From assembly GCA_964399265.1 (NCBI GenBank), contig CAYNQF010000001.1:1195-65194 (forward strand): DNA of 64,000 nt, given 5' to 3'. The stretch comes from an uncultured bacterium (GTDB taxonomy: Bacteria > Joyebacterota > Joyebacteria > Joyebacterales > Joyebacteraceae). This document shows, piece after piece, positions 22,741-40,816 of this stretch (its first letter is position 1; each line of letters starts with the position of its first letter). The notes beneath the pieces were generated by a model that was given only the letters and a program-made list of their open reading frames with translations, did no database searches and was not told where the DNA came from. Position numbers and translations under genes: made by a program.

Positions 22741-22741
22741 G

Positions 22742-23746: not shown

Positions 23747-24577
23747 ATGTACATTGCCGACGAAGCCAACACGAGAAGGAACGAGGCCGGCGCAAGTGCG
23801 GCCCGCCGGCGTTCCGGATCGCACGACTGGACCTCGGTGGCCGTGGCCATGCTCGCCACGTTCATCGTTATTGTCATGGCTCTGGGTGTTGCGGATGCTC
23901 GCGAGCCGGAGCGGGCCGATAGATCTGACACGGCGATAGAGAAGCTGTTCAAGGTCGACAGGCTTCACGAGGCTACGCGCGGGGAGATCGCGCTGCCGGA
24001 GCCGTCGCGCTCGGGCGGCCTCTCAGTCGAGGCGGCCATCGAGGGCAGACGATCGGTCCGGACGTTCACGGACGATCCCGTGACACTCGAGCAGCTCTCC
24101 CAGCTCCTGTGGGCCGCGCAGGGGATCACGGACAGGGATAGGTTCAGGCGCTCGGCCCCATCCGCCGGCGCCACGTATCCTATAGAGATATTCGTGGTGG
24201 CGGGGCGCATCGATGGACTCGAGCCCGGGGTCTATTGGTATGTGCCGTCGAGCCACACGATCAACCTGATCTCGGCCGGCGACCGGCGCCCGGAGCTCTC
24301 CGAGCAGGCTCTGTCCCAGTCGTCGGTGCTTAACGCGCCACTGTCGCTCGTCATAACCGGCGTCTACGAGCGGACTATGGAGAAGTACGAGGAGAGAGGT
24401 GTTCGTTACGTTCACATAGAGGTCGGAGCGGTCGCCGAGAACGTGTACCTGCAGGCGGAGAGCCTGGGACTGGGAACGGTCTTCGTGGGTTCGTTCTCGG
24501 ACGACGGCGTGCGCGACCTCCTTCACGCCGAGGTCTCTCCGCTCGGCATTATGCCTTTGGGGGTGCCCGCCAGATGA
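23747..24577 (+). CDS. membrane-anchored SagB-type dehydrogenase / nitroreductase-superfamily protein
   Basis: N-terminal TM helix followed by a nitroreductase-fold domain (RRSVRTF... / GAVAENVYLQAESLGLGTVFVG). Confidence 0.6.
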   Translation: MYIADEANTRRNEAGASAARRRSGSHDWTSVAVAMLATFIVIVMALGVADAREPERADRSDTAIEKLFKVDRLHEATRGEIALPEPSRSGGLSVEAAIEGRRSVRTFTDDPVTLEQLSQLLWAAQGITDRDRFRRSAPSAGATYPIEIFVVAGRIDGLEPGVYWYVPSSHTINLISAGDRRPELSEQALSQSSVLNAPLSLVITGVYERTMEKYEERGVRYVHIEVGAVAENVYLQAESLGLGTVFVGSFSDDGVRDLLHAEVSPLGIMPLGVPAR

Positions 24578-24924
24578 GACAGCGAACGACTCCGGGACAA
24601 CTCTGTAGAATTAAGGCTCCCAGACCAGGGGACGAGGAGCCGCGGGCCCGTGGTTACGACGTCGGTCCCGACGGGATGCTCAAGGACGTAGGAGAACCCG
24701 TGGCGGTCCTCGCCAGGTTCGGAAAGGGTCAGATCGACCCGCTCCGTTTCAAGTGGAACACCTGTGTTTACGACGTGGACCGCGTGAGCGGCAAGTGGGA
24801 GGAGCACGAGGGACAGTACAAGCTCTACTATTTCGGCGTCGTGACGAAGGCCGAGGATTACTACGAGCTCATCTACAGCACGAGGACGATGAGCTGGACG
24901 TTGTCCAGGACGGATAGCGATTGA
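24574..24924 (+). CDS. hypothetical small protein, translationally coupled (ATGA overlap) to the preceding gene
   Basis: The ATG at 24574 overlaps the TGA of the SagB-type gene. Coding-like composition; no recognised domain; the true start could be internal. Confidence 0.4.
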   Translation: MRQRTTPGQLCRIKAPRPGDEEPRARGYDVGPDGMLKDVGEPVAVLARFGKGQIDPLRFKWNTCVYDVDRVSGKWEEHEGQYKLYYFGVVTKAEDYYELIYSTRTMSWTLSRTDSD

Positions 24925-24940
24925 TGGTTGGAGGTGCGCC

Positions 24941-25432
24941 ATGAACGTCAGGATGCTGGCCCCGGACACAACGACCTGCTTCATGTACTACGAATCACCC
25001 ATCGGGCTCGTGGAGGTTGGCAGCACCGCGGGGGCCATCACATCGCTGTACTTCGTCGACGAGCGTCGTTCCGAGATGCTCAGGGACGAACTCGGCGAGG
25101 AGGCCGTGCGGCAGGTCGCCGAGTACTTTGAGGGCGGGCGCCGCGAGTTCGACGTTCCGGTGTCGCTAGGTGGAACGAAGTTCCAGAAGCTCGTCTGGAA
25201 CGAGCTTCTGAAGATATCGTTCGGCAACACCGTGTCGTACGGAGACATCGCCAAAGCGATAGGCAAGCCCACGGCGGTGCGCGCCGTCGGTGCTGCCAAC
25301 GGGCAGAACCCCATATCGATCATCATCCCGTGTCACCGCGTGATCGGGAACGACGGTCGCCTGACAGGTTACGGAGGGGGACTATGGCGGAAGCAGTGGC
25401 TTCTGAAGCACGAGGGCGGTCTGCTGCTCTGA
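24941..25432 (+). CDS. ogt: methylated-DNA--protein-cysteine methyltransferase
   Basis: Active-site PCHRV and helix-turn-helix NPISIIIPCHRVIG. GGAGGTG RBS. Confidence 0.85.
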   Translation: MNVRMLAPDTTTCFMYYESPIGLVEVGSTAGAITSLYFVDERRSEMLRDELGEEAVRQVAEYFEGGRREFDVPVSLGGTKFQKLVWNELLKISFGNTVSYGDIAKAIGKPTAVRAVGAANGQNPISIIIPCHRVIGNDGRLTGYGGGLWRKQWLLKHEGGLLL

Positions 25433-25443
25433 AGGAGAAGAAC

Positions 25444-26550
25444 GTGTCGGGCGACGGATCGAACGTCTACTGGAAGGAAGTCTACGACACGCTCGTAGCG
25501 AGCGTGCGTTTCAACGGCAAACACGGCGACATAGACGGCCATCTGTGCAGATTGTCGGAGTCGGTCGGTCCGCGCGCGCACGGCCACCCGTTCGTCCTCC
25601 ACAGGGGCGGGGGCGACATGGAGGTGTGCCTGCCGGTGACGGGGCCGCTCGACGACGACAGCAGCGGGGGACCCGCGCCTGGCGGGTCCCCCGAGATATC
25701 CTTCGGCACGCTCGGGGGCGCGGTCATGATGTGCGCTCCGTTCGAGGGCGACTTGGGTTCCGATGATACGGCGCGCTCGCTCGGGGAGGAGTTCGGAAGG
25801 CTCTGGCGTCACACGGTCGAGCATCACATCGGCGTCACCGAGGACCCCTGGCGCGAGGTCCTGCTCGATTACGAACCCGGCATTGCGGGCCTGTACAGGG
25901 CGGAGCTGCAGGTGCCGATGCTCCTTCCGAAATGGCTCGAGAGGCTCCGCGCCGGGCTCGACCGGTATGCCGGTGTGTCGGTGCGTCAGCACGTGCTGGG
26001 AGGAAGCGAGCGGCTCTACCCGTCTTCGAGTTCTTCCGAGAAGGTGACGTGGGTTAAGGGCGCGATGGCGCGCCTCGACGCGGCGGTCGAGGACGAGAAC
26101 AGGAGACGGGCCATCATGTGTGGATGTGCGCACGTCTATCCCGCCGCGCGCATCGCTGCGCTCAAGCGCGAGTACGAACGTCTCGGAAGCGTCGACGCAC
26201 TCCTCGAGTTCATCGCGAACGATCCGGGGTTCGACGTTGCGCCGTACTACCGCGACCCCGAGAGGTCCGGCAACGTCATCCTCATAGACAAGAACCCCCA
26301 GGAGCGTGAGAAGCACGCCGAAGCCACTGACCCATTCGTCAAACGCGCGGCGGCCTGCCACTGCCCGATCGTCAAGGCGGCCATACTCGCGGGCGAGAAC
26401 GTGTCGTTCACGTACTGCGGCTGCGGCACGGGATGGTTCAAGCCCGTGTGGGAAGCGATCCTGGAGGCGCCGGTCGACGTCATCTGCGAGGAGTCCGTCC
26501 TGCGAGGCGACGACCGCTGCAGGTTCGCCATCTACCTTCCGGAGGAATAG
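25444..26550 (+). CDS. hypothetical Cys-rich protein (motifs MCGCAH, CHCP, YCGCGTGW, RCRF in C-terminal half)
   Basis: GTG 25444 lies 11 nt after the ogt stop, preceded by AGGAGAAG. Stop is 1 nt before the fpg ATG. No family recognised. Confidence 0.5.
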   Translation: MSGDGSNVYWKEVYDTLVASVRFNGKHGDIDGHLCRLSESVGPRAHGHPFVLHRGGGDMEVCLPVTGPLDDDSSGGPAPGGSPEISFGTLGGAVMMCAPFEGDLGSDDTARSLGEEFGRLWRHTVEHHIGVTEDPWREVLLDYEPGIAGLYRAELQVPMLLPKWLERLRAGLDRYAGVSVRQHVLGGSERLYPSSSSSEKVTWVKGAMARLDAAVEDENRRRAIMCGCAHVYPAARIAALKREYERLGSVDALLEFIANDPGFDVAPYYRDPERSGNVILIDKNPQEREKHAEATDPFVKRAAACHCPIVKAAILAGENVSFTYCGCGTGWFKPVWEAILEAPVDVICEESVLRGDDRCRFAIYLPEE

Positions 26551-26551
26551 C

Positions 26552-27376
26552 ATGCCCGAGCTTCCAGAGGTCGCGTCGCGAGCTAAGGAGATGCAGAGGC
26601 TGCTCGTCGGGAAGACGATCCGCGACATCGAGCTCTTGCAGCCCAAGTGCCTGAACGTTCCGCCGGCCAGGTTCAAGAAGGCGCTCAGGGGCGCGGAGCT
26701 TCTGGGGACCTCGTACCACGGCAAGTGGCTCTTCACGGACACGACCAAGGGGCATCTGCTCATCAACCTGGGCATGGGTGGCGACATGCTGCTCGTGAAG
26801 GACGACGAGATTCCCGAGAAGCGTCAGGCCGTCTTCTACTTCGACGACGGGACCGCTCTCTCCATCCGGTTCTGGTGGTTCGGGTACGTTCACTACGCGG
26901 CCGAGGGCAAGCTCGGCTCGCACAAGATGAGCGGGAAGCTCGGTCCGAACGCGGTCGACGTCTCCAGAGACGAGTTCCGGGAGATGCTCCGCGGCAGGCG
27001 GGGCGCGGTGAAGACGTTCCTTCTCGACCAGGAGAAGATCGCCGGGATCGGCAACGCCTACGCGCACGACATCCTGTTCCTGGCGGGTCTCCATCCACAA
27101 CGAAAGCTCGACACGCTATCGGAGGACGAGGTCGACGGGCTGTGGCGGGGCATCCGCGACGGGCTCCTTCCGAGCCTCAAGAAGAGGGGCGCCTGGTACG
27201 AGCGGGACCTCAAGGGCAGACGCGGCGGATTCAAGATGGACGACATCCAGGTCGGCTACCTCGAGGGAGAGCCCTGCCCGACATGCGGCACGAAGATCGA
27301 GAAGCTCAAAACCGGAAGCACTTCTTCGTTCATCTGCCCGAAGTGCCAGGCGCTCAAGCCGAAGAAGAAGAGATGA
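26552..27376 (+). CDS. mutM: formamidopyrimidine-DNA glycosylase (Fpg/Nei family)
   Basis: N-terminal MPELPEV with catalytic Pro2/Glu3. H2TH region present. C-terminal zinc finger CPTCG...CPKCQ. GGAGGAA RBS. Confidence 0.85.
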   Translation: MPELPEVASRAKEMQRLLVGKTIRDIELLQPKCLNVPPARFKKALRGAELLGTSYHGKWLFTDTTKGHLLINLGMGGDMLLVKDDEIPEKRQAVFYFDDGTALSIRFWWFGYVHYAAEGKLGSHKMSGKLGPNAVDVSRDEFREMLRGRRGAVKTFLLDQEKIAGIGNAYAHDILFLAGLHPQRKLDTLSEDEVDGLWRGIRDGLLPSLKKRGAWYERDLKGRRGGFKMDDIQVGYLEGEPCPTCGTKIEKLKTGSTSSFICPKCQALKPKKKR

Positions 27377-27518
27377 GCCGCGACTCCGTAGACGTTCTGT
27401 TCGAGGACCCGCTCGCCGGGTCCCTCTGGAGCGCGGGGACAACGACGTTCTGGTCAGGCTGGAGGTGAAGGAGCCCCTCTTCGGGAGCGGCTTCTGGATG
27501 AGGCTGAGGTAGCGAACG

Positions 27519-28961
27519 ATGCTGGGACGACACCACAAGGAAGCGTCCGCGGGCGAGGTGCGCGACAGGCGCCTCGTCTTCCACGTCGACATGGACGCGT
27601 TCTTCGCGTCGGTCGAGGTGATGTGCCGACCGAAGCTGCGTGGCAAGCCGGTCATCGTCTGCGGCAAGCCGACGACTCGCAGCGTTGCGGCCGCGGCATC
27701 GTACGAGGCCCGGAAGTACGGCATCCGGTCCGGCATGTCGACCGTTGAGTGCTTCCGCCGCTGCCCCCACGTGGTAGCGGTCGAGGGCAATCCGGGGCAG
27801 TACATCTACGTTTCGCTCGAACTGCTGCGCATCTACAAGGAGTTCTCGACGATCGTCGAGCCCTACTCGATCGATGAGGCGTTCGTCGAGATGACCGGCA
27901 CGAAATGCAACTGGCAGAACTGCGAGGGCGTGGCTCTCGAGATCAAGGACAGGATAGGGAAGAGGTTCCCCGGACTTACGGCGACCATAGGCGTGGGCCC
28001 CAACAAGCTCGTGTCCAAGATGTGCGGCCACCTGAACAAGCCCGACGGCATAACGGTCATACGACCCGGCGGGTTCCTGGACGTGTTCGGCGAACGCAAC
28101 GTCACCGACATCTGGGGCGTAGGCGACAGAACGGCCCTCGCTCTTTCTATGATGGGCATGGACAACATTCGCGAGCTGTCGGAGCACCCGGTCTCGATGC
28201 TGCGTCGTCGCTTCGGCATCATGGGAGAGATCCTTCACATGATGGCCGTCGGTCGCGACGACACGCCCGTCGTGCCGTACTTCGAGGGCATGCCGGTCAA
28301 ATCGATGGGTCACGAACATACGCTCCCGGCTGACACGTGGGACATCGCCGAGGCGGAGAAGGTGTTGCTGCGTCTGTGCGACCAGGTTGCGCGACGGATG
28401 CGGAAGAAGGGATACCTGGGCGACGTCATCTCGATGCGTCTTAGGTTCAGCGACTTCGAGAGCATAGGCAGGCAGAAGAAGCTCAAGTTCTACACGGACG
28501 AGGAGCGCGTCATATACAAGGAAGCGCGCGAGCTTCTGCACAGGCACTGGAGGCCGGGACACTCGATCAGGCTGGTGGGCGTGAACTGCTCGGGTCTGGT
28601 GAAGGTGCCCGAGACGGTGCAGGTCGACCTCTTCCGTCAGAAGGAGGAGGACTCACACAGGAAGCTTCTGGCGGCCGTCGACGCGATCAGGGACAAGTTC
28701 GGCGAGAACGCCATAACGAGGGCGCGACTCGTCGACATCAATCGCAGGATGTGGGACGCCGGCCGCCGCGTCTCGGAGCCCAGGTTCCAGAAGATGTCGG
28801 TCGGAACGAGCGAGCGCCAGTACCACTCGATCATGGCCGGGTTCCACGACAACAAGGCGAACGTGGATACCGTACCGCTTCCACCCGGTCTTTCGTCGAG
28901 TCCGTTCGACATGCTGCGCCACCAGGACGCCGAGGATCTGAGCCGCGGAGGCATCGACTAG
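27519..28961 (+). CDS. dinB: Y-family DNA polymerase IV with ~100-aa C-terminal extension
   Basis: HVDMDAFFASVE catalytic motif. Little-finger region present. 480 aa, longer than typical DinB. Confidence 0.85.
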   Translation: MLGRHHKEASAGEVRDRRLVFHVDMDAFFASVEVMCRPKLRGKPVIVCGKPTTRSVAAAASYEARKYGIRSGMSTVECFRRCPHVVAVEGNPGQYIYVSLELLRIYKEFSTIVEPYSIDEAFVEMTGTKCNWQNCEGVALEIKDRIGKRFPGLTATIGVGPNKLVSKMCGHLNKPDGITVIRPGGFLDVFGERNVTDIWGVGDRTALALSMMGMDNIRELSEHPVSMLRRRFGIMGEILHMMAVGRDDTPVVPYFEGMPVKSMGHEHTLPADTWDIAEAEKVLLRLCDQVARRMRKKGYLGDVISMRLRFSDFESIGRQKKLKFYTDEERVIYKEARELLHRHWRPGHSIRLVGVNCSGLVKVPETVQVDLFRQKEEDSHRKLLAAVDAIRDKFGENAITRARLVDINRRMWDAGRRVSEPRFQKMSVGTSERQYHSIMAGFHDNKANVDTVPLPPGLSSSPFDMLRHQDAEDLSRGGID

Positions 28962-29014
28962 CGGCAGGCTCAGATGACACGAGCGTTCAGACCCGAGAGG
29001 CGTCAAACGGAGTG

Positions 29015-29941
29015 ATGGTGATAGACCTCCAGGATAAGCAGGGCGACCTCTTCCCCGAGATGCCACACGCGGGAGAGCATCAGATCGCCGACACGAACGG
29101 GGCGTACGACAGCAGCCCGGTCCCTCCCAACGTGCACCGTCTGGGGCGCCACGGCCGCATACGCGTCGGTACGTCCGGCTACAGCTTCGCCGACTGGATC
29201 GGCCCGTTCTATCCCCAGGGCACGCCCCGCAGCAAGATGCTCGACGAGTACGTCCGTCACTTCGACGTGGTCGAGATCAACTCGAGCTATTACCGGCTCC
29301 CGGACGCCAGGATGTTCGAGAGGATGGAAGAGAAGACACCGGACGGGTTCGAGTTCATCGTCAAGCTCTACAAGGGGATGACACACGAGATCGAGAGCGA
29401 CACGTCGATGTACCGTTCTCTGTCCGACGCGATCGCACCGCTTCGCGAGGCGCAGAAGTTCGGCGGGTATCTGGCGCAGTTTCCCTGGAAGTTCAAGAAC
29501 ACGCCGGAGGCGCAGGCCCACCTCGGCTTCCTGAGGGAGCACCTCGGTGGCGACTCGCTGTTCGTCGAGTTCAGGCACGACTCGTGGATGACGCCTGAGG
29601 TGTTCGAGTTCCTGCACTCCGAGGGGCTGGGGTACTGCTCGGTCGACGAGCCGAACCTGAAGGGCCTCATTCCCCCCGTGGCCCGCGCCACGACCGAGGA
29701 GGGTTACGTGCGGTTTCACGGTCGCAACTCCGTGAACTGGTGGGGGAAAGGCGGCGGAGACCGCTACGACTACGATTACAGCGACAGCGAACTCGGCGAG
29801 TGGGCGAAGAAGCTCGTCACCCTTGAGGACAAGGTCAAGAAGGTCTACGCTTTCTTCAACAACTGCCACGCGGGTCACGCCGCCAGGAACGCCGAGCTGA
29901 TGATCGAGATGCTCGGCAGCGAGCTGGGCGATCGGTGCTGA
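29015..29941 (+). CDS. DUF72 (YecE-like) family protein
   Basis: VGTSGYSFADW...FYP N-terminal signature. ATG 29015 after a GGAG-like RBS; the long upstream extension of the ORF is discounted. Confidence 0.75.
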   Translation: MVIDLQDKQGDLFPEMPHAGEHQIADTNGAYDSSPVPPNVHRLGRHGRIRVGTSGYSFADWIGPFYPQGTPRSKMLDEYVRHFDVVEINSSYYRLPDARMFERMEEKTPDGFEFIVKLYKGMTHEIESDTSMYRSLSDAIAPLREAQKFGGYLAQFPWKFKNTPEAQAHLGFLREHLGGDSLFVEFRHDSWMTPEVFEFLHSEGLGYCSVDEPNLKGLIPPVARATTEEGYVRFHGRNSVNWWGKGGGDRYDYDYSDSELGEWAKKLVTLEDKVKKVYAFFNNCHAGHAARNAELMIEMLGSELGDRC

Positions 29942-30014
29942 CGACCGCGCGCCACCGGAGAGCGCCGCCGGCGCCCTACGAATCCATGACGTTCGGGAGA
30001 CCGGGAGACCGCTG

Positions 30015-30404
30015 ATGGACCGGACGCGTCCTGATATGCTCGGATATTGCGGCATCTACTGCGGGCGGTGCGACATCCACGTCGCGTGCAAGACCGGAGA
30101 CACGGCCGGCCAGCAGGCGATCGCCGACTGGATAAACGAGCATCACGGTGCCAAATGCACGGCGGAGGAAATACGATGCAGCGGGTGCAAGGGGCCACTG
30201 GACGAACACTGGAGCGTGAGCTGCAAGGTCCGGTTGTGTGCCTCCGAGAGGGGCGTAACCACCTGCGTCGACTGCGGCGAGTATCCGGGTTGCGACACGC
30301 TCGAGACCTTCTACCGTGGAGGAGACTACGAGTCGGCCCGGAAGACCCTGGAGAGGATTCGGGAGATCGGATTGAACGCCTGGCTCGAGGAACAGGAGGG
30401 GTGA
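30015..30404 (+). CDS. DUF3795 Cys-rich domain protein
   Basis: CGIYCGRCDIH ... CSGCKG ... CVDCGEYPGC pattern. Confidence 0.75.
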   Translation: MDRTRPDMLGYCGIYCGRCDIHVACKTGDTAGQQAIADWINEHHGAKCTAEEIRCSGCKGPLDEHWSVSCKVRLCASERGVTTCVDCGEYPGCDTLETFYRGGDYESARKTLERIREIGLNAWLEEQEG

Positions 30405-30408
30405 CGAG

Positions 30409-31146
30409 GTGAACAGACGCCACCACATCGCGACGGCCATGGTGATGCTCGCGTCCCTCATGCTGCTCACGTGTATCACCGCGGAAGCGGACGACCAGAC
30501 GTCGAAGGGCCGCCCGGTCGTGCCGGGCTCCGTGCTCGACGCCCCTCCGGAGCATCCGTCGCCCGACGCTCACTATCTCATCTATCTGCACGGAGCCATA
30601 CTCGAGAGCGAGGGCCCCGACGCGGTGCACCCGCGCTTCGGCAGATACGAGTACTCGGCGATACTGGACTCGTTGGCCGTCAGGGGGCTCGTCGTCATAA
30701 GCCAACTGAGGGCGCAGGGCGCCGATCCGATCGATTACTCCAAGAGCACGGCGGAGTGGGTTAACACGATGATCCGCGAAGGTGTCCCGCCTGAGCACAT
30801 CACGGTCGCCGGTTTCTCGAAGGGCGGCGGCATAGCGATGGACATCTGCCGGCGCCTGTCCAACCCCGGCGTCAACTACGTCTTCATGGCGTGCTGTCCA
30901 AGGGCGATGCAGGACTGGCCCGAGGCCGACTACCGCGGGCGCATTCTCTCGATCTACGAAAAGAGCGACGATTTCGCCGGTTCCTGCCGAGAGGCCATTC
31001 TCGGCTCTGCCGACGCGCCGACTCCCGAGGGCATCGTGTTCAAGGAGATCGAGATAGACACCGGGCTCGAGCACGGCGCGTTCTACCGACCACGGCCCGT
31101 GTGGGTCGACCCGGTGGTCGGTTGGGCGATGTCGTCTCCCGAGTAG
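30409..31146 (+). CDS. secreted/membrane-anchored alpha/beta-hydrolase-like protein
   Basis: N-terminal hydrophobic segment. GFSKGG nucleophile elbow. GTG start 4 nt after the preceding stop, with a GGAGGGG RBS. Confidence 0.5.
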   Translation: MNRRHHIATAMVMLASLMLLTCITAEADDQTSKGRPVVPGSVLDAPPEHPSPDAHYLIYLHGAILESEGPDAVHPRFGRYEYSAILDSLAVRGLVVISQLRAQGADPIDYSKSTAEWVNTMIREGVPPEHITVAGFSKGGGIAMDICRRLSNPGVNYVFMACCPRAMQDWPEADYRGRILSIYEKSDDFAGSCREAILGSADAPTPEGIVFKEIEIDTGLEHGAFYRPRPVWVDPVVGWAMSSPE

Positions 31147-31151
31147 CGCTT

Positions 31152-33467
31152 ATGACCATCACCGATTTCCTCCAGAAGATACGGCACGACGGTTACTACG
31201 CCGGGCAGATCGCCCACGTGGAGACCGTTCCCTCCCGGGAGGCCGAGTACGGCGACCTCTCCGAGCCGCTCCCGGGACCGCTCGCCCGGGCGCTCGAGGC
31301 CGCCGGGATAGAGAGACTCTACTCCCATCAGGTGGACGCCATCGAGGCGGTCCGGCGGGGCAGGAACGTGGTCGTGGTGACCGGGACCGCTTCGGGGAAG
31401 ACGCTCTGCTACAACGTCCCCGTGCTCGAGCGTCTGCTCGCGAAGCCCTCGGCAAAGGCTCTCTACCTGTTCCCGACCAAGGCCCTGGCGCAGGATCAGG
31501 TCAAGTCGCTCACGAGGCTGGCCGGACTGGACACTGAGCTCATGGAGGTCGTCCGGACCGGCACGTACGACGGGGACACGACCCGCCACACGAGACGCAA
31601 GCTCCGCGACGAGGGGAACGTCATCCTCTCGAACCCGGACATGCTCCACGCCGGGATACTCCCATATCACGCCAAGTGGAACAGGTTCCTGAAGGACCTC
31701 GAGTACGTCGTCGTCGACGAGATACACACGTACCGCGGCATCTTCGGGTCGAACGTCGCGAACGTCCTCCGGAGGCTCAGGCGCGTGTGCGAGCACTACG
31801 GTTCGCACCCGCAGTTCATATGCTCGAGCGCGACGATCGCGAACCCGCGGGAGCTTGCGGAACGGCTGGTGGGTGAGCCGTTCGAGGTCGTAGACCGCGA
31901 CGGGAGCCCGCGTGGGACGAAGCACTTCGTGCTCTGGAACCCGCCGTACCTCGACGATACCAAAATGGAACGCAGAAGCTCCAACGTCGAGGGGCACTGG
32001 CTCATGTCCGAGCTGATCGCCGAGGGGTTCCAGACGATCGCCTTCGGCAGGGCTCGGGTCGTCGCGGAACTCATCTATCGCTACGCGAAGGACTCCCTGC
32101 GGAGACGGAAGCCCGAGTACGCGGAGAAGATCAAACCCTACAGGGGCGGCTACCTGCCCGAGGAACGGCGCGAGATCGAGAGGCAGCTCTTCTCGGGCGA
32201 ACTCATGGGGGTCGCCAGCACGAACGCCCTCGAGCTTGGCATCGACGTGGGTAGTCTGGACGCGGCGGTCATAGTCGGGTTTCCCGGCACGATAGCGAGC
32301 GTCTGGCAGCAGGCCGGACGGGCGGGACGCGCTTCCGACGAGTCGCTCGCGGTCCTGGTCGGATACAATGACCCCATCGACCAGTACCTCATGCGGCACG
32401 GGCGGTATTTCTTTATGCAGTCCCCCGAGAACGCGGTCATCGACCCCGGCAACAAGTATATTCTCGCGAACCACCTTCGCTGCGCGGCGTTCGAGCTTCC
32501 GCTCTCCGAGATGGACTACGACCTGTTCGGAGAGCTGGCGGAGCCGATCATTGACGTGCTCGACGAGGTGGAGGACCTGAACGAGATAGACGGGCGCCAC
32601 TACTGGGCGTCGACCGACTTCCCGGCGAGGGCGATGAACCTCAGGACCATCTCGGACAACACGTACACTATCGTAGACGTCGCTCGCGACAACGCGGTGA
32701 TCGGTGTGGTCGACGGTGTGTCCGCGCTCGAGCTGGTCTATCCGGAGGCCATCTACCTGCATGAGGGCGAGACCTACTTCGTCCGCGACCTCGACCTCGA
32801 GCAGAAGGTGGCCTACGTGGAGAAGAAGGAGGTCGACTACTACACCCAGCCGGTGTTGGAGTCGGCCATCCGGATCGGTGAGGCGACGGACTCCAGGGTG
32901 TGGAACGGGAACAACGTGTTCTTCGGCGACGCCACCGTCACCTGGGTGACGTCTGCGTTCAAGAAGATCAAGTTCTACCAGCTCGACTCCATCGGATGGT
33001 CGAATCTCGACCTGCCGCCGTTCCACCTGGAGACCAAGTCGCTCTGGGTGTCTCCCTCGAAAGAGGCGATGGACGCGGTCCGCTCCCAGGGACGCAATCC
33101 CGTCGAGGGACTGGTCGGAGTGCGCAACGTTGCGATATCGGTCCTGCCTCTCTTCTCGATGAGCGACCGCAGGGACGTGGGCGGTATCGTCGAGAGCGGC
33201 AACACCGGGAGCCCCACGATGTTCCTATACGACAGGTTCGAGGGCGGGCTCGGGTTCGTCGAGACGGGCTACCGCAACATCGGCGAGCTCCTGCGGGGGT
33301 GTCTCGACCTGGTCGAGGAGTGCGACTGCGAAGATGGATGTCCCTCGTGCGTCGGCCTGCCCATACTGAGGCCGCCCATTCAGCAGGACCCCGATGCGGG
33401 CGGCGCCTGGCCGATCCCGGACAAGGAGTCCGCGCGGCTGCTCCTCAGAGCGATGCTCGCGGCCTGA
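31152..33467 (+). CDS. mrfA: MrfA/YprA-like DEXH-box helicase with C-terminal DUF1998 zinc-Cys4 domain
   Basis: Walker A GTASGKT. DEIH box (VVDEIHTY). C-terminal CDCEDGCPSCVGLP. ATG lies 5 nt after the upstream stop. Confidence 0.8.
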   Translation: MTITDFLQKIRHDGYYAGQIAHVETVPSREAEYGDLSEPLPGPLARALEAAGIERLYSHQVDAIEAVRRGRNVVVVTGTASGKTLCYNVPVLERLLAKPSAKALYLFPTKALAQDQVKSLTRLAGLDTELMEVVRTGTYDGDTTRHTRRKLRDEGNVILSNPDMLHAGILPYHAKWNRFLKDLEYVVVDEIHTYRGIFGSNVANVLRRLRRVCEHYGSHPQFICSSATIANPRELAERLVGEPFEVVDRDGSPRGTKHFVLWNPPYLDDTKMERRSSNVEGHWLMSELIAEGFQTIAFGRARVVAELIYRYAKDSLRRRKPEYAEKIKPYRGGYLPEERREIERQLFSGELMGVASTNALELGIDVGSLDAAVIVGFPGTIASVWQQAGRAGRASDESLAVLVGYNDPIDQYLMRHGRYFFMQSPENAVIDPGNKYILANHLRCAAFELPLSEMDYDLFGELAEPIIDVLDEVEDLNEIDGRHYWASTDFPARAMNLRTISDNTYTIVDVARDNAVIGVVDGVSALELVYPEAIYLHEGETYFVRDLDLEQKVAYVEKKEVDYYTQPVLESAIRIGEATDSRVWNGNNVFFGDATVTWVTSAFKKIKFYQLDSIGWSNLDLPPFHLETKSLWVSPSKEAMDAVRSQGRNPVEGLVGVRNVAISVLPLFSMSDRRDVGGIVESGNTGSPTMFLYDRFEGGLGFVETGYRNIGELLRGCLDLVEECDCEDGCPSCVGLPILRPPIQQDPDAGGAWPIPDKESARLLLRAMLAA

Positions 33468-33553
33468 GTGCTTTTGCCTACGGTGCGGCCGTTCGGGGGC
33501 GTATAGTGGAGCGGAGAGGCATAGCAGGGAGCGGCACGGACGGGAGGACACAC

Positions 33554-34237
33554 GTGGAGTGGTTCAGGGATGACGTGGGGGACGGGGTGATAGCGGAGCA
33601 CGCGGTGGTCGGGTTCGCCTCCGCCAACTGCTACATAGTGGCCGACGAGAGGACCCGCGAGGCGGTCATTGTCGACCCGGGCGCCGACAGGCCCGAGGAG
33701 GTCGAGGGCATCGTTGCCGAGGTCAAGCGCCTTGGCCTCAGCCTGCGGTACATCCTGAACACACACGGCCATCCCGACCACATGTGGGGCAACGATCTGG
33801 TCAAGAGCGAACTGGGGGGCCAGGTGGTCATCCACGAGCTTGACGGGATGAAACTCACCGACCCTGACAGAAATAGCTCGACCCTCTTCGGCATGTCCGT
33901 CCGCGTGCGTCCCGCCGACAGGTTGGTGCGCGACGGCGACTCTGTCGACATCGGTGACGTCAAACTCAAGGTACTGCACACGCCGGGTCACAGCTCGGGT
34001 GGCGCCGCCTTCCTCGGCGACGGCTTCGTGCTGACCGGGGACACGCTCTTCGCCGGGTCGATAGGCCGGTCCGATCTGCCATGCTCGAGCGAGGACTCAA
34101 CGATAGCCTACGAGGTCCTCCTCGAATCGATAGGCAACAAGCTTCTTACGCTGCCCGACGAGACCCGTGTGCTGCCGGGCCACGGCCCCACGACCACGAT
34201 CGGCATCGAGCGCAGGACCAACCCCTTCCTGAGGTAG
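33554..34237 (+). CDS. MBL-fold metallo-hydrolase (glyoxalase II-like)
   Basis: THGHPDH motif plus downstream His/Asp ligands (HTPGHS, GD). GTG 33554 with a GGGAGGA RBS; the start is uncertain. Confidence 0.7.
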   Translation: MEWFRDDVGDGVIAEHAVVGFASANCYIVADERTREAVIVDPGADRPEEVEGIVAEVKRLGLSLRYILNTHGHPDHMWGNDLVKSELGGQVVIHELDGMKLTDPDRNSSTLFGMSVRVRPADRLVRDGDSVDIGDVKLKVLHTPGHSSGGAAFLGDGFVLTGDTLFAGSIGRSDLPCSSEDSTIAYEVLLESIGNKLLTLPDETRVLPGHGPTTTIGIERRTNPFLR

Positions 34238-34245
34238 CCCGGGGA

Positions 34246-35271
34246 ATGGAACTCAGGTACGAGGTCATAGAGCTGGTGCCGCGGTTCGTGTTCAGGACCG
34301 CGCGCACCACGAGCGCCTCGAGCGAGAGCGTCGTGGTTAAGCTCTCGGACGGGGAGCTGACCGGACTGGGGGAGGCGGCGCCGTCCAGGTTCTACGGCGA
34401 GACGACCGATACGGTCGTGGCCTATCTCGAACGGATGCGCCCCGCCGTCGAGCACTCCGTGCACGAGTCGGAGCTGATGTCGTACCTGACGTCGCGCGGA
34501 GGTCACTCGGACCCTGCTGCCCGCGCCTCGCTCGAGATCGCGGCTCATGACATGATGGGGAAACGCTACGGCGTCCCTCTGTGGAAGCACTTCGGCCTCG
34601 ACCCGGAACGAACGCCGGTGACGACGATCACCATCGGGATCGACGAGCCCGACGTCATGCTGGAGAAGGCGCTCGAGGCGAAGGGATATCCGCTCCTCAA
34701 GATCAAGCTCAACGCGGACACCGACCTGTCGATCGTCGAACGGATCAAGAAGGCCACCGGCGCGCGCTTGACCGTGGACGCCAACTGCGGATGGGACGTC
34801 GACAGCGCGATACGGAACGTCGCCGAACTTGCCCGGTTCGGCGTCGAGTTCGTGGAGCAGCCGGTCAAAGCGGACGACATCGAGGGACTGCGCCGCGTGA
34901 AGGAACGCTCGACGATACCTGTCTTCGCGGACGAGAGCTGCCCCACGAGCAGAGACGTATCGGCCGTCGCGCGGGCCGTGGACGGCGTCGTCATCAAGCT
35001 CATGAAGTGCGGCGGGTTCGTCGACGCCGTGGCTATGGCCGGCGAGGCCAGGCGACACGGTCTCGAAACCATGATCGGCAGCATGCTGGAGAGTTCCATC
35101 TCGATCACCGCCGCGGCGCACATCTCGCCGCTCATGGACTACGCGGACCTGGACAGCGTCTTCCTGCTGTCGAACGACCCCTATTCCGGGATGAAGATAG
35201 ACCACGGGCGGATTGTGCTCCCCGAGGGGCCGGGATTGGGCGTGAGCCCCGCCGAGGCCCGGGTTGCCTGA
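34246..35271 (+). CDS. enolase-superfamily enzyme (dipeptide epimerase / MR-MLE-like)
   Basis: KIKL lysine pair. Metal ligands D..E..D (TVDANCGW, EQP, ADES). N-terminal capping domain present. Confidence 0.75.
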   Translation: MELRYEVIELVPRFVFRTARTTSASSESVVVKLSDGELTGLGEAAPSRFYGETTDTVVAYLERMRPAVEHSVHESELMSYLTSRGGHSDPAARASLEIAAHDMMGKRYGVPLWKHFGLDPERTPVTTITIGIDEPDVMLEKALEAKGYPLLKIKLNADTDLSIVERIKKATGARLTVDANCGWDVDSAIRNVAELARFGVEFVEQPVKADDIEGLRRVKERSTIPVFADESCPTSRDVSAVARAVDGVVIKLMKCGGFVDAVAMAGEARRHGLETMIGSMLESSISITAAAHISPLMDYADLDSVFLLSNDPYSGMKIDHGRIVLPEGPGLGVSPAEARVA

Positions 35272-35301
35272 CGCCGTGAGGCTGACGCCGGAGGTGTGCA
35301 C

Positions 35302-38106
35302 ATGAGGACCGCCAAGGCCTCGTTCCTGCTGTTCCTGATCTCCCTGCTCGCGCTCGCTTCGTGTTCGACCCACGAGGAGTTCGTCGAGAGAAAGCTCGCC
35401 AGGGCCGACGAACTCGCCAAGCGACGGGACTACGCCGCCGCTCAGTCGCTCCTCGACTCAGCGCTGGACAGGTCGCCCGATGATGTCCGCCTTGCGCTCG
35501 GCAAGGCTGACATCCACATGATGGCACACGAGTACGACCGAGCCCAGGCCTGGTACAACGAGGCCATGGCCATCGACGACCGCAGTCTCGACGCCGTCGT
35601 CGGCAGGTGGGAGGCCATGCACGAGGCCGATCCCGACAGCGCCGTCTCGGCCGGGATCCTCGCCGAGGCGGACGCCCTTCTGGGCGTCGCCCCCGACAGC
35701 CTGTTCAATCTCTCCGCCTTCGTCGAGGCCTACTACATGCTGGACCGGTTGGACGACGTTGGCGACGAGGCCCGACTCCTGACAACGCTCTATCCCAAGA
35801 GCAAGTTCGCCGACGAGCTGATCAAGGAGGACATCGACTGGATAGGTGTGGAGCGCGACGACCAGACCAGGCTCGAAATGGCCAACGCTTTCCTCGAGGA
35901 CTATCCCGAGACCAGATGGCGGCCTCGTGCCCTCATGCTCAAGCTCGTTTCACTTCGGAGGCTCGGGAGGAACGACGAGGTGCTCGATGCCTGCCGGGAG
36001 TGGACGGCGGCGAACCCCGACGACCCCGAGGTCCTGAACGTCGCGGCGACCGAGATGGTGGCGGTCCGCAAGGCACCCGACGAGGCCGCCGCGCTGGCGC
36101 GGAGAGCCATAGAGCTTACGCTCAAGGATTGGTCCGAGGGTACGGAGGAGTCGCGGGAGGATTCGGAGGAGGCAGGCTACGGCGACGGAGAGCCGGGCGA
36201 GGGCGGAGCGGCGGAGAGGACGTCCGGCGACCCCTCTCACGACCAGGAACAGGATCTGGCGGGGTACTACCTCACGCTCTCGCGGGCACTCGTGCTCGCC
36301 CGCGACTTCCCGTCAGCGCTTCAGGCCGCGCGAGACGGGCTCGGAGTGCTCGACACGGGGCCCGACGAGGAAGAGACGGGCTCCGCGTGGCAGTTCGTGG
36401 CGGGGCAGGCGCTGGAGGGGCTCGTGAGTTACGAGGCCGCGTTCGACTCATACCTGGAAGCGATCATCGTCGGAGGGCGGCAGGACCGCTGGCCGGCAAG
36501 GGCGGACACGGCGATACGCGCGCTCTACGACCAGAGGTTCGCCGCGCGTTCGGGAGGGGCGCCGCTCGTCGAGTTCGCACGCGAGCGTCTGGAGTACGCG
36601 GGTCCGGTGTTCACGGACGTGACTGACGCCGTGGGCCTGTCCGGGCGCAACGAGTCGAGAATAGCGTGGGGCGACTACGACGGCGACGGCTACGAGGACC
36701 TTCTTCTGTCGGGCCGCGTGCTCATGAAGAACATGAGAGGCTCCGGGTTCGTGGATGTCACCGATGAGGCCGGAATAGGCGGGAGCGGGGCGAATGGTGG
36801 CGTCTGGGCCGACATCGACAACGACGGCGACCTCGACATGTACGCCACGTCCGGAGCCACCGAGGGGGACAAGACCGACAGGCTCTGGCGCAACGAGGGT
36901 GACGGCACGTTCGTCGACGTCACCGTGTCGGCCGGAGACGTCACCGACCACTACACGACCGAGGGAGCCGGGTGGGGCGACTTCAACTCCGATGGATACG
37001 TCGATCTCTACCTCGCCAGCTACGAGCGCCCACGCACCGAGACGTTTCAGGAATACGGCGTCGGCTACCCTGACATACTGTATGCGAACCGGGGCGACGG
37101 GACGTTTCACGACGTGACCCATACGATGGGGATCGTTCCGCCGTTCGGGAAGGACCTGTGCGGCCGTGGAGTCAACTGGGGCGACTACGACAACGACGGA
37201 GACCTGGACATCTACGTTTCCAATTACAGACTTCAGGAGAACTTCCTGTGGAGAAACGAGGGTGGCGCCGGGTTCGTCGACGTGGCGCCGCAGCTCGGCG
37301 TCTCCGGCAACGAGACCGACGGCTGGTGGGGCCACACGATCGGCTCGGAGTGGGGAGACATGGACAACGATGGCGACCTCGACCTCTTCTGCGCCAACCT
37401 GGCTCATCCACGCTACATAGAGGTATCGGACAAGTCCATGCTCTACAGGAACATGGTCGGGCGCGACGGTCGGTTCCACGGAGACTCTTTCATCGAGCGC
37501 AGAGCCGAGGCCGGCATCAAGTACGCCGAGACGCACTCGGACCCGTCGTGGGGCGACGTCGATAACGACGGCGACCTCGACCTGTTCATCACGTCCATAT
37601 ACCCTAACTGCGCGACCTTCCTCTACCTGAACGACGGCCACGGCGACTTCGCGGACGCGACGTGGCTGGCGGGCGTGAGGTCGTTCAACGGGTGGGGCGC
37701 CGCGATGTGTGACTACGACCACGACGGCGACCTCGACATAGGCGTGGCCAGCGCGTCCGGCTTCCACCTGTTCAGGAACGACGGTCTGGCGGCAGCAGCG
37801 GGCGGCGTGGAGAGCCACTGGCTCGAGGTGAAGTGCGTGGGGAGCCGCTCCAACGCGGCCGGCATCGGAGCGCGGGTGGTCGCGCGTTCGGGGCGAACCA
37901 CGCAATTGCGCGAGATAGAAGGGGGCAAGGGCACCACGAGCCAGCACGCCATGATCGCCCACTTCGGTCTTGGCGGAAGGGGCGGGCCGGTCGGTCTTGA
38001 GGTCAGGTTCCTGGGTGGGGCGACGGTCGTGCTAGAGGACGTCGCCGTCGACAGGTTGGTGACCATCGTCGAGCCGCTCGAAGCGGGGGACGGGGATTCG
38101 AAGTGA
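35302..38106 (+). CDS. secreted TPR + FG-GAP/VCBS repeat + ASPIC/UnbV (CRTAC1-family) protein
   Basis: Signal peptide, then N-terminal TPR-like helices, then multiple DxDGDGxxD FG-GAP repeats, then C-terminal ASPIC/UnbV (HFGLGG...VEVRF). GGAGGTG RBS; the start is ATG 35302 or GTG 35296. Confidence 0.7.
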   Translation: MRTAKASFLLFLISLLALASCSTHEEFVERKLARADELAKRRDYAAAQSLLDSALDRSPDDVRLALGKADIHMMAHEYDRAQAWYNEAMAIDDRSLDAVVGRWEAMHEADPDSAVSAGILAEADALLGVAPDSLFNLSAFVEAYYMLDRLDDVGDEARLLTTLYPKSKFADELIKEDIDWIGVERDDQTRLEMANAFLEDYPETRWRPRALMLKLVSLRRLGRNDEVLDACREWTAANPDDPEVLNVAATEMVAVRKAPDEAAALARRAIELTLKDWSEGTEESREDSEEAGYGDGEPGEGGAAERTSGDPSHDQEQDLAGYYLTLSRALVLARDFPSALQAARDGLGVLDTGPDEEETGSAWQFVAGQALEGLVSYEAAFDSYLEAIIVGGRQDRWPARADTAIRALYDQRFAARSGGAPLVEFARERLEYAGPVFTDVTDAVGLSGRNESRIAWGDYDGDGYEDLLLSGRVLMKNMRGSGFVDVTDEAGIGGSGANGGVWADIDNDGDLDMYATSGATEGDKTDRLWRNEGDGTFVDVTVSAGDVTDHYTTEGAGWGDFNSDGYVDLYLASYERPRTETFQEYGVGYPDILYANRGDGTFHDVTHTMGIVPPFGKDLCGRGVNWGDYDNDGDLDIYVSNYRLQENFLWRNEGGAGFVDVAPQLGVSGNETDGWWGHTIGSEWGDMDNDGDLDLFCANLAHPRYIEVSDKSMLYRNMVGRDGRFHGDSFIERRAEAGIKYAETHSDPSWGDVDNDGDLDLFITSIYPNCATFLYLNDGHGDFADATWLAGVRSFNGWGAAMCDYDHDGDLDIGVASASGFHLFRNDGLAAAAGGVESHWLEVKCVGSRSNAAGIGARVVARSGRTTQLREIEGGKGTTSQHAMIAHFGLGGRGGPVGLEVRFLGGATVVLEDVAVDRLVTIVEPLEAGDGDSK

Positions 38107-38921
38107 GCGCGGACACCGATGCAAGAGAGCGCGACGACGATCTCCGGAAGCGGCTTCACCGGCTGGGAGACGCGCCACGAGTGACGAAGCTCCGCGCCCG
38201 CAGCCGCCCCGCGGCGCTCGAGGACATGGACGGCGTGGTAGAGCGCGACGGCGTCCTCGTCGTGGAGCGCAGCGTCACGTCGCTGATGTCGCAACGCGCC
38301 AGCCGCGCCATCCTGGAGAGGACGGCGCGGGCACGGCGCGAGGCGGAACGCCGCGACGACGTCGACGAGGAGGTCAGGAATCTCCTCCTGAATCCGGGCG
38401 GCGCGCTCTTTCTGGACACGGAGACCACCGGACTCGGCAGCGCCATGGTATTCATGCTCGGTTCGATGCGCATCACCGATTCGGACATGGTCGTGAGGCA
38501 GGTGTTCGCTCGCGACTACTCCGAGGAGAGGGCACTGATTGACGCATGGACGGGGATGCTCGGCGGCGCGGACATGCTCGTCTCGTTCAACGGGAAATCG
38601 TTCGACCTCCCGGTGCTCCGGGACAGGGTCGGATACCACGGTCTCGATGTCGTTGATGAGCCCGCGCACCTCGATCTGCTCCACGTGTCGCGCCGCAGGT
38701 GGAAGGACGTGCTGCCCGATTGCCGGCTTCAGACGCTCGAGTGGAACGTCTGCCGCCGCAGGAGGACCGGCGACATCCCCGGCGAGGAGATACCGGCGGC
38801 CTATCACAGGTTCGTTCGCACCGGTGACCCGAGCGACATGCTCGCCGTCTTCCACCACAACGCGCTCGATCTGGTGACTCTGGCCGACATCGCGGCCGCG
38901 CTGGCCGCGCCCGCGGAGTGA
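38103..38921 (+). CDS. mrfB: MrfB/YprB-like RNase-H-fold 3'-5' exonuclease
   Basis: FLDTETTGLG, FNGKSFDLPVL, HLDLLHVSRRRW and HHNALDLVTL blocks are collinear with B. subtilis YprB. GTG start overlaps the preceding stop (GTGA). Confidence 0.75.
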   Translation: MSADTDARERDDDLRKRLHRLGDAPRVTKLRARSRPAALEDMDGVVERDGVLVVERSVTSLMSQRASRAILERTARARREAERRDDVDEEVRNLLLNPGGALFLDTETTGLGSAMVFMLGSMRITDSDMVVRQVFARDYSEERALIDAWTGMLGGADMLVSFNGKSFDLPVLRDRVGYHGLDVVDEPAHLDLLHVSRRRWKDVLPDCRLQTLEWNVCRRRRTGDIPGEEIPAAYHRFVRTGDPSDMLAVFHHNALDLVTLADIAAALAAPAE

Positions 38922-39133
38922 CCGGGCGGTCCGGCTCGCGAGTCGAAGCCCTGCGGAGGGCGGGACAAAGCCTGCGACAGAGCGGAGTTGTCGCCGTCAG
39001 AAATGAATGTGCACAACTCGTGGACAAGGTCGTGCGTAAGCGGTTGACTGCTTCTGACGGACGGTGGGTAACCTTCTGAGTCGTTGCAGCGTGCGGCCGC
39101 ACTCTCCGAACACACAACCCGGGAGGAGCTCGA

Positions 39134-40816
39134 ATGAGCGGTGGCAAGGTCTTCACGTTCATCGTCGGAGGACGGGCGGGCGCCGGCGCCAAGAAGGCGG
39201 GGGCGGTGGCCTCCGACCTCTTCGCGTCGATGGGGCGACACGTCTTCCAGATGGACGATTACCAGAGCCTCATCAGGGGCGGTCACAACTTCATCGCTTC
39301 GAGCACGTCCATCGGCCCGGTGCTGAGCCACTACATGAAGGCCGATCTGGTGGTCGCGCTCGACAAACGCAGTCTGGAAACCCATCGCGACAACATCAGA
39401 AAGGGCGGAGTGCTCGTCTACAACTCGGACGAGGCCGACGAGGAAGCGGCCGAGGGCACCGCGGCCGGCACGGTCGTGGGCGTTCCCATGACGACCGAGG
39501 CCAAGAAGCACACCGACCCCGAGCTCAGGCTTGGCCTGGCCGGTCCGGCGTCGCTCGCCGCCGTGCTCGGAATGTCGCACGACGAACTCGACGAACTCAT
39601 CAGGAAGGGCTATCGGAGAGACCTCGAACAGAACTTGCCGTTCGCCGGAGCGGTCTACGACGCCGTTGCGGCGAAGGCGGCCGGTACGTTCTCATTGGAG
39701 AAGGGCGAGGTCGAGCTGCCGATGCTCACAGGGAACGAGGCCATCGCGCTCGGCGCGTGTGCTGCCGGGCTTGACCTCTACTTCGCGTATCCCATGACGC
39801 CGGCGAGCACCGTGCTCCACTTCCTGGCCGCCCACGACGAAGCGCTCGGCGTCGACGTCATGCACCCGGAGAGCGAGATCGCAGCGATCAACATCGCGCT
39901 CGGCGCCGCGGCGATGGGAGCGCGGGCGATGGTGGGAACGAGCGGCGGCGGATTCGCGCTCATGGAAGAGGCCTTCTCGCTCGCCGGCATGGCCGAGGTG
40001 CCGATACTCGCCGTTCTCTCCTCTCGACCCGGTCCCTCCACGGGCGTTCCGACCTACACCGAGCAGGCCGATCTCAGGTTCGCGTTGAGCCAGGGCCACG
40101 GCGACTTCGCGAGGGTCGTCGCGTCACCCGGCAGTGTGGAGGAAGCGTTTGCGCTGTCCGCTGAGATGCTGGCGCTCGCGTGGGAGTTCCAGGTGCCGTG
40201 CATTCTGCTCACCGAGAAGCACCTCTCCGAGAGCAGGGTGACCGCGGACATCGACCCGTCCTCCGCGGCCTGGGCGACGCCGGTCATGCACGAGGGAGGG
40301 GACTACAAGCGTTACAGAGAGACCGACAACGGAGTGTCGCCCCTCCTGTTCCCGCCGTCTGGCGAACTCATCAAGTGGACCAGCTACGAGCACGACGAAC
40401 TCGGACTGACCACCGAGAAAGCGACCGAGGTCGCTCGCATGCACGACAAGCGCGCCCGAAAACTGCCCGCCATCATCGAGAAGCTGAAGGGCATGACGAC
40501 GGTCAGGCGCTACGGGAACTCGGGGCCCACCATCGTGACGTACGGCTCGACCACGCTGTCCGTACGCGAGGCGCTCCGCGCCTCCGGCATCGAGGCCACC
40601 GTGGTGCAGCCGGTCTATCTGCAACCGTTCCCTAAGTGGGAACTCAAGGACATCCGCGGCACGTCGCCGGTCGTCGTGGAGCAGAGCTGCAGCGGGCAGT
40701 TCGCCACTCTCCTGTCCGACAAGCTGGGGACAGAGCCCTCGGCCGTGATCAGGAAGTACGACGGACGACCCTTCGAGCCCGACGATCTGGCGGAGGAACT
40801 GCGTAAGGTCCTTTGA
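39134..40816 (+). CDS. korA: 2-oxoacid:ferredoxin oxidoreductase, fused gamma-alpha subunit
   Basis: N-terminal gamma-like domain, then an alpha domain with the TPP/transketolase-like fold (GNEAIALGA...YPMTP). GGGAGGAG RBS. Confidence 0.85.
   Translation: MSGGKVFTFIVGGRAGAGAKKAGAVASDLFASMGRHVFQMDDYQSLIRGGHNFIASSTSIGPVLSHYMKADLVVALDKRSLETHRDNIRKGGVLVYNSDEADEEAAEGTAAGTVVGVPMTTEAKKHTDPELRLGLAGPASLAAVLGMSHDELDELIRKGYRRDLEQNLPFAGAVYDAVAAKAAGTFSLEKGEVELPMLTGNEAIALGACAAGLDLYFAYPMTPASTVLHFLAAHDEALGVDVMHPESEIAAINIALGAAAMGARAMVGTSGGGFALMEEAFSLAGMAEVPILAVLSSRPGPSTGVPTYTEQADLRFALSQGHGDFARVVASPGSVEEAFALSAEMLALAWEFQVPCILLTEKHLSESRVTADIDPSSAAWATPVMHEGGDYKRYRETDNGVSPLLFPPSGELIKWTSYEHDELGLTTEKATEVARMHDKRARKLPAIIEKLKGMTTVRRYGNSGPTIVTYGSTTLSVREALRASGIEATVVQPVYLQPFPKWELKDIRGTSPVVVEQSCSGQFATLLSDKLGTEPSAVIRKYDGRPFEPDDLAEELRKVL

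Follow-up and report, generated by a model that had tools for sequence, protein, structure and literature searches.

Bacillus subtilis repairs mitomycin C damage with a pair of proteins, the helicase MrfA (YprA) and the exonuclease MrfB (YprB), which are encoded side by side on one strand with the helicase first (Burby & Simmons 2019; Roske et al. 2021; Manthei et al. 2024). The 64,000-nt stretch of DNA analysed here (the window, from contig CAYNQF010000001.1 of an uncultured bacterium) encodes homologues of both, likewise on one strand and helicase first, but here 4,635 nt separate the helicase end from the exonuclease start, and the exonuclease start codon overlaps the stop codon of a gene for a CRTAC1-like protein. 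The locus thus raises the question of whether the intervening genes work together with the pair or are insertions that split an ancestral mrfAB. We consider it likely that the window holds homologues of the known mrfAB pair, split by the stepwise insertion of unrelated genes, that is, by operon erosion. The best organism-named matches of the window proteins are metagenome-assembled genomes of Candidatus Eisenbacteria, and window G+C is 64-67%; we know of no cultured representative of the Eisenbacteria.

The helicase aligns end to end with the solved B. subtilis MrfA structure 6ZNP, in a single alignment (E 1e-200, 672 bits, residues 25-738 on 26-734) and with the same order of DExH core, winged helix and four-Cys MZB. 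Pfam profiles find DEAD (8e-33), Helicase_C (7e-12), WHD_HRQ1 (PF22982, 1e-11) and MZB (PF09369, 3e-20). The segments GTASGKT and DEIH align with motifs I and II of MrfA, and within ECDCEDGCPSC the run CDCEDGCPSC pairs with CPCHDGCPSC of 6ZNP, all four cysteines falling in the pattern CxCxxxCxxC. Four conserved MZB/DUF1998 cysteines are the published mark of an MrfA homologue (Burby & Simmons); with these, the DExH core and the winged helix all present, the helicase is, on its sequence, a true MrfA homologue. Its 3'-5' DNA helicase activity and a role in mitomycin repair would follow by analogy with B. subtilis. A full-length match was also obtained to TIGR03817 ('helicase/secretion neighborhood'; 752 bits, model positions 1-717 of 742), and the YprA repair-branch architecture is shared with Mycobacterium smegmatis SftH; however, the score lies below the trusted cutoff of 874 bits, the gene context is not actinobacterial, and an MrfB-like exonuclease is linked in the window. 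No second helicase copy was found in the window by tblastn.

A PDB sequence search with the exonuclease gives one match only, to the core of MrfB (8UN9, E 5e-22; about 24-30% identity), and the Pfam match of the protein is RNase_H_2 (2.4e-32). In the alignment with 8UN9, D105/E107/D168/H252/D256 fall on MrfB D107/E109/D172/H258/D262; these five DEDDh residues are invariant in 28 homologues, and the wedge Leu111 is aligned as well. The AlphaFold2 (AF2) model (pLDDT 88.9) has residues 45-96 as a structured insertion before beta-1, where MrfB has its own N-terminal insertion. A Foldseek search with the model places 8un9_A at the top (E 2e-8, TMt 0.63); next come archaeal PolB and Pol epsilon, i.e. 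exonuclease domains of family-B polymerases, which are also the closest folds named in the MrfB structure paper (PMC11194089). Directly after the start codon lies an amphipathic helix (residues 3-22) with the motif L[KR]x[KR]L..L. Of the in-frame starts, GTG 38103 alone retains L[KR]x[KR]L. L18 is shared by all of 28 homologues, and the helix is family-wide, occurring in the TPR-bearing and TPR-less groups described below and in helicase-adjacent homologues of other phyla. The N-terminus of B. subtilis MrfB is needed for MrfA binding and, by prediction, wraps around the winged-helix domain of MrfA (10.1101/426304; PMC11194089). The original prediction had recognized both proteins from motifs, and sequence, domain and fold tests bear it out; its ORF (open reading frame) coordinates and quoted motifs, among them FLDTETTGLG, FNGKSFDLP and HHNALDL of the exonuclease, are all present, all on the + strand.

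At 272 versus 413 residues, the exonuclease is shorter than B. subtilis MrfB, without the C-terminal tetratricopeptide repeat (TPR) domain of three repeats: in the AF2 model the last core helix is H244-267, and the chain stops about 5 residues later. The C-terminal extension is at most 24 aa in relatives of the window clade, versus about 130-170 aa in TPR-bearing homologues. The MrfB/YprB homologues sampled (L004-L095) fall into two architectures, one with the TPR extension (Bacillota, Acidobacteriota and others) and one TPR-less, with a TPR-less clade made up of Eisenbacteria, Planctomycetota, Armatimonadota and Zixibacteria. In nearly all sampled members of this clade the helicase is separated or not in the flank, the exception being the short contig L086, where it is adjacent; a Chloroflexota locus (L015) has a TPR-less, helicase-adjacent exonuclease outside the clade. 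In B. subtilis the TPR of MrfB is dispensable at high expression (PMC11194089), and it is not among the published criteria for calling MrfB homologues, which the DEDDh residues are (Burby & Simmons). By those criteria, as read from alignment and predicted fold, the exonuclease is a true MrfB homologue in a TPR-less form. We considered whether the N-terminal TPR of the CRTAC1-like protein replaces the missing MrfB TPR and rejected this, as that protein carries a lipoprotein signal and relatives lacking its gene are also TPR-less.

Three genes lie between the pair, not four as first stated (the original prediction's own list names three), so that mrfB does not directly follow mrfA. Their predicted identities, a metallo-beta-lactamase (MBL) hydrolase, an enolase-family enzyme and a TPR/FG-GAP/ASPIC protein, were upheld by Pfam (Table 1). 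The MBL protein has GSH_gloB as its top NCBIfam match (83 bits, cutoff 200), and GGAGG stands 7 nt 5' of its start GTG 33554. The epimerase scores 237 bits with DgcA (cutoff 400) and 154 bits with L-Ala-D/L-Glu epimerase (cutoff 343); its best 120 homologues are all at least 64% identical, and the few of these with an organism name are Ca. Eisenbacteria proteins labelled 'dipeptide epimerase'. The third protein matches FG-GAP_3 (2e-35), UnbV_ASPIC (5.5e-11) and TPR_16/19/14. Like others of the CRTAC1/ASPIC-UnbV family it carries FG-GAP repeats ahead of a UnbV_ASPIC domain at the C-terminus and is predicted to be exported; unlike them it also has a TPR region at the N-terminus, together with a lipoprotein signal. 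It had been described as a secreted protein of 936 aa. The domains stand, but the length comes from the mechanical ORF beginning at GTG 35296, and ATG 35302 is the more likely start because GGAGG lies 7 nt ahead of it. The N-terminus, MRTAKASFLLFLISLLALASC, reads by eye, rather than by a signal-peptide predictor, as a lipoprotein signal with the lipobox LASC, which is present in the ASPIC proteins of L089 and L090 too. No ASPIC paralogue was found elsewhere in the window by tblastn, and neither the Pfam and PADLOC scans nor the synteny of 11 relatives supports a link of this protein to DNA repair.

The spacing of these genes is tight. Reading along the + strand, the gaps are 5 nt from an alpha/beta-hydrolase gene to the helicase, 86 nt to the MBL gene, 8 nt to the epimerase, 30 nt to the ASPIC gene and -4 nt to the exonuclease, with 212 nt from there to the next gene. 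The -4 is the tetranucleotide GTGA, read directly, in which the exonuclease GTG overlaps the preceding stop as predicted. Given gaps of -4 to 86 nt between co-directional genes, we infer that the alpha/beta-hydrolase through mrfB are probably co-transcribed in the window genome; the start-stop overlap argues for co-transcription there, not for shared function, and mrfB may be translationally coupled to the 3' end of the lipoprotein ORF. Over about 38 kb of the window (13306-51503) genes are almost all on the + strand with short gaps, so same-strand proximity has little weight as operon evidence here.

For a survey of synteny, an alignment of exonuclease homologues was used to scan genomes, one for each species; this gave 80 loci, to which tblastn with the window proteins was then applied (a metagenome scan with the single exonuclease protein gave 5 short loci and added little). 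The helicase lies directly upstream of the exonuclease in 24 of the 80 loci (Bacillota, Acidobacteriota, Atribacterota, Chloroflexota and Myxococcota), within 10 kb yet separated in 6, and is absent from the fetched flank in 50; for 18 of these the upstream sequence is shorter than 10 kb.

We read eleven related loci, of which L001/2 and L084 are too short upstream to show the helicase side. Every related locus with enough upstream sequence, 10 in all, has the arrangement helicase…MBL-epimerase…exonuclease (listed: L003, L005 and L089-L095, with MBL orthologues of 226-259 aa at the equivalent position), and a downstream order of POR (2-oxoacid:ferredoxin oxidoreductase)/nitroreductase/SSF/PHP/Yip1/ExbB is likewise common to them. 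An orthologue of the upstream alpha/beta-hydrolase was found in L090 only. Besides the window, five of the 11 relatives have the ASPIC gene (L001/2, L084, L003, L089 and L090) and six lack it (L005 and L091 to L095). The 4-nt overlap is confined to the window and L001/L002, whose exonuclease is 84% identical; in L003, L089 and L090 the two genes are 14, 13 and 33 nt apart, respectively. By the gene calls of the ASPIC-less L091 and L093, the exonuclease instead overlaps the epimerase by 14 nt. The exonuclease gene sits close against its upstream neighbour, whichever gene that is. A conserved mrfB/CRTAC1-like operon is therefore contradicted, neither gene pair nor overlap being kept across relatives, and the overlap, restricted as it is to the closest relatives, appears to be recent local packing.

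The other end of the insertion varies as well. Four loci (L090-L093) have opposite-strand genes between the helicase and the MBL gene, and since both a B12-binding radical-SAM gene (L091-L093) and an unrelated 494-aa reverse-strand gene (L090) are found at this junction, it appears to be a recurrent insertion site. We tried the L090 gene as a further copy of the radical-SAM gene and rejected it for lack of a significant BLASTP match. In more distant loci within the clade that both proteins share, where names of fillers were read from translations and not from profile matches, the pair is separated by (i) a methyltransferase-like ORF in L008, labelled Eisenbacteria, (ii) a Uma2-like ORF and a membrane protein in L009 (Pirellulales), and (iii) ORFs resembling a PLD-type synthase and an EamA transporter, along with an EEP-like gene in reverse orientation, in L007 (Phycisphaeraceae). 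Despite the changing fillers, helicase and exonuclease remain linked at 1.3-6.2 kb on the same strand in Eisenbacteria, Phycisphaerae and Pirellulales. The exonuclease and helicase trees both place Eisenbacteria and Planctomycetota together in one TPR-less clade. In the helicase tree, lineages whose pairs are adjacent form the sister group of the TPR-less lineage as a whole, and the ASPIC-positive L003, L089 and L090 form one group with the window.

Table 1. Coordinates and annotation of features in the window and, where a locus is named, in related loci
Feature	Position	Strand	Remarks
MrfA/YprA-family 3'-5' DNA helicase homologue	31152..33467	+	771 aa; DExH core, winged helix, MZB/DUF1998 C-terminus
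MBL-fold hydrolase, glyoxalase-II-like	33554..34237	+	227 aa, HGHPDH motif; Pfam Lactamase_B 1e-28
Enolase-superfamily dipeptide-epimerase / N-acyl-amino-acid-racemase-like enzyme	34246..35271	+	341 aa; Pfam MR_MLE_C 3e-41, MR_MLE_N
TPR + FG-GAP + UnbV/ASPIC (CRTAC1-like) predicted lipoprotein	35302..38106	+	934 aa from ATG 35302
GTGA overlap, 4 nt	38103..38106	+	Exonuclease GTG 38103-38105, ASPIC stop TGA 38104-38106
MrfB/YprB-family DEDDh 3'-5' exonuclease homologue	38103..38921	+	272 aa; no C-terminal TPR domain
LexA	23041-23706	+	Pfam
Nitroreductase	23747-24577	+	Pfam
Fpg	~26552-27376	+	Pfam
DinB/Pol IV-like Y-family polymerase	27519-28961	+	Pfam
DUF72	~29074-29941	+	Pfam
DUF3795	30015-30404	+	Pfam
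Alpha/beta-hydrolase	30409-31146	+	Stop 5 nt ahead of helicase ATG
2-oxoacid:ferredoxin oxidoreductase alpha subunit	39134-40816	+	Downstream of exonuclease
B12-binding radical-SAM gene	L091 6465-7946	-	Between helicase and MBL
B12-binding radical-SAM gene + TetR regulator	L092 5839-8011	-	Between helicase and MBL
B12-binding radical-SAM gene	L093 6428-7912	-	Between helicase and MBL

Because the pair is adjacent in loci of other phyla (the 24 of 80) and the intervening content varies by lineage, we take adjacency as ancestral and the split as later, and the synteny comparison thus favours the insertion that the original prediction had offered as one of two options. From an adjacent mrfA-mrfB operon, the glyoxalase-II-like MBL and dipeptide-epimerase-like genes would have entered before the sampled core Eisenbacteria diverged; the lipoprotein gene would then have entered between epimerase and mrfB in one sub-lineage, including the window genome, and other sub-lineages would have gained their opposite-strand genes at the mrfA-MBL junction. 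On this history MBL and epimerase would be passengers and the ASPIC gene a lineage-specific insertion. Persistent linkage, clade-level congruence of the two trees and the retained N-terminal helix indicate that helicase and exonuclease are presumably still a pair. Their physical partnership and substrate we infer from B. subtilis: the exonuclease would dock on the helicase via its N-terminal helix, the helicase would unwind damaged DNA and pass a 3' end to it, and the exonuclease would remove the damaged strand, giving UvrABC-independent excision of bulky adducts. Distant homologues fail cross-species complementation in B. subtilis (Burby & Simmons), so substrate or lesion specificity may differ here.

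That failure is one of several points that weigh against a split but functional mrfAB. No TPR domain was detected in the exonuclease by Pfam, which leaves the B. subtilis three-repeat architecture unmatched. The 50 of 80 MrfB-like loci without a helicase in the flank mean that the two genes are not obligatorily linked. A promoter and terminator consensus scan over 30300-39300 gave no promoter-like site and no + strand terminator, though host promoters may differ from the consensus. The supposed passengers MBL and epimerase are present in every core-clade locus sampled, and the downstream order from POR to ExbB is equally conserved, so that conserved order discriminates neither way. Both trees are quick neighbour-joining distance trees, and the short exonuclease tree puts L090 apart from the other ASPIC-positive loci, so that the ASPIC gene may have been gained once or gained and also lost.

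The constancy of the MBL and epimerase genes leads to the other option of the original prediction, a functional link of the intervening genes to the pair. For the CRTAC1-like gene this is not supported, given its absence from six of the 11 relatives and an overlap found in the closest relatives only; what holds is that the MBL and epimerase genes are always there in the core clade. They, and possibly the lipoprotein, could belong functionally to an enlarged MrfAB module of Eisenbacteria, for instance by detoxifying or processing a genotoxic natural product, with MrfAB then removing the DNA adducts that it leaves. The two genes stand directly upstream of the exonuclease (or of ASPIC plus exonuclease) in the window and all 10 far-reaching related loci, on one strand throughout with short gaps and with the 14-nt epimerase/exonuclease overlaps of L091 and L093, and nitroreductase genes and the LexA-headed repair array described below are close by. 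We nevertheless judge such a module unlikely. No MBL or epimerase homologue was found by tblastn near the exonuclease outside the Eisenbacteria core clade in the 80-locus survey (0 of 78 genome loci belonging to other lineages), and the outgroup L008 has its methyltransferase-like ORF in their place. The MBL protein is glyoxalase II-like, without the beta-CASP nuclease module, and PADLOC and Pfam detect no repair-related domain in the intervening genes. The ASPIC gene is missing from half of the loci, and its product, as a predicted exported lipoprotein, would be topologically apart from the DNA. The whole 20-40 kb neighbourhood (more than 20 kb around the pair) is equally syntenic, so low rearrangement in the clade explains the position of the MBL and epimerase genes. 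The narrower proposal that these two are accessory factors of a lineage-specific genotoxin response, joining detoxification to adduct excision, seems to us slightly less probable again.

A split mrfAB also has to be set against the possibility that a stand-alone YprA-type helicase and an independent YprB-like nuclease lie near each other by coincidence and do not cooperate. The many flanks without a helicase, the 'YprA only' branch recognized in the literature (PMC12458937) and the opposite-strand genes of L090-L093, which make helicase and exonuclease separate transcription units there, would all fit. But same-strand linkage at 1.3-6.2 kb persists with different fillers in three lineages, both gene trees return one TPR-less clade, and a conserved helix is kept at the N-terminus, the part of MrfB through which B. 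subtilis MrfA is bound. By a rough estimate, not a computed one, chance proximity at about 7 kb in a few-Mb genome would have a probability below one percent, and the proximity nevertheless recurs in several lineages; we regard coincidence as very unlikely. As for the helicase being part of an anti-phage system in a defence island (DISARM, Druantia, Dpd and so on), its YprA family does include many defence helicases (PMC12458937), the superfamily 2 (SF2) core is common to DISARM DrmA, Druantia DruE and Dpd DpdF/J, DUF1998/MZB is common in the family at large, and the PADLOC models BrxH, DruE, DrmA and DpdF do give matches. These matches cover only the generic SF2 core, at no more than 127 bits against 672 bits to MrfA; sequence, domain and fold searches place the 31152 and 38103 proteins with MrfA and MrfB. 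None of the five scanned neighbour genes matches a PADLOC model, and their Pfam matches likewise include no methylase, PLD nuclease or DrmB-like partner. Unlike the defence helicases, the window protein has no inserted domains or C-terminal nuclease fusion, and it sits among housekeeping and repair genes in a phylum-wide conserved order. With core-only matches and no partner genes, the defence reading is effectively refuted and its probability negligible.

Upstream of the pair, a co-directional LexA-nitroreductase-(DUF6144)-Fpg-DinB/Pol IV-DUF72-DUF3795/YjbQ-MrfA array (window 23041-33467) is common to several Eisenbacteria loci; the order Fpg-IMS-DUF72-DUF3795/YjbQ-helicase is found in L091-L095 too, with LexA at its head in L094. 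Judged by its gene content, the array looks like a DNA-damage-response gene block, which would set DUF72 and DUF3795 in a repair context. The position of the pair behind LexA-Fpg-DinB-DUF72 supports a DNA-damage role for it, and the region-wide conservation of gene order in the clade weakens any functional inference from the fixed MBL/epimerase position. Within the array, a DUF6144-like ORF (25330-26550) and the mechanical Fpg ORF (26306-27376) share about 245 nt. As the Fpg domain starts only at ORF residue 83, translation of Fpg probably begins near 26549-26552, just behind the preceding stop.

The region upstream of lexA (window 22713-22975) holds a terminator-like hairpin, TTGACG and two TGCAC-N4-GTGCA palindromes, one perfect (22750-22763) and one with a single mismatch (22773-22786), with TAGCAT between them. 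An identical layout precedes lexA in L094 (582-790). The tandem palindromes are candidate LexA operators overlapping a promoter. No further TGCAC-N4-GTGCA was found before fpg, dinB, mrfA or the MBL gene, leaving just the two copies at the lexA promoter. Beyond the palindromes comes a conserved leader, about 105 nt in length, with a long hairpin (-57.5 kcal/mol, z -2.6); Rfam at the gathering threshold gave no match in the window, this leader included.

The locus offers no new mechanism; it presents a known repair pair with a TPR-less MrfB and a split arrangement, and extends the MrfAB pair to the uncultured phylum Ca. Eisenbacteria. It points to a TPR-less MrfB subfamily whose clade keeps the pair loosely linked, at 1-6 kb, while fillers come and go. 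As an example of operon erosion it also cautions against reading function into start-stop overlaps. Together with the candidate LexA operators, the LexA-Fpg-DinB-DUF72-MrfA…MrfB array could help to define the SOS regulon of the phylum.

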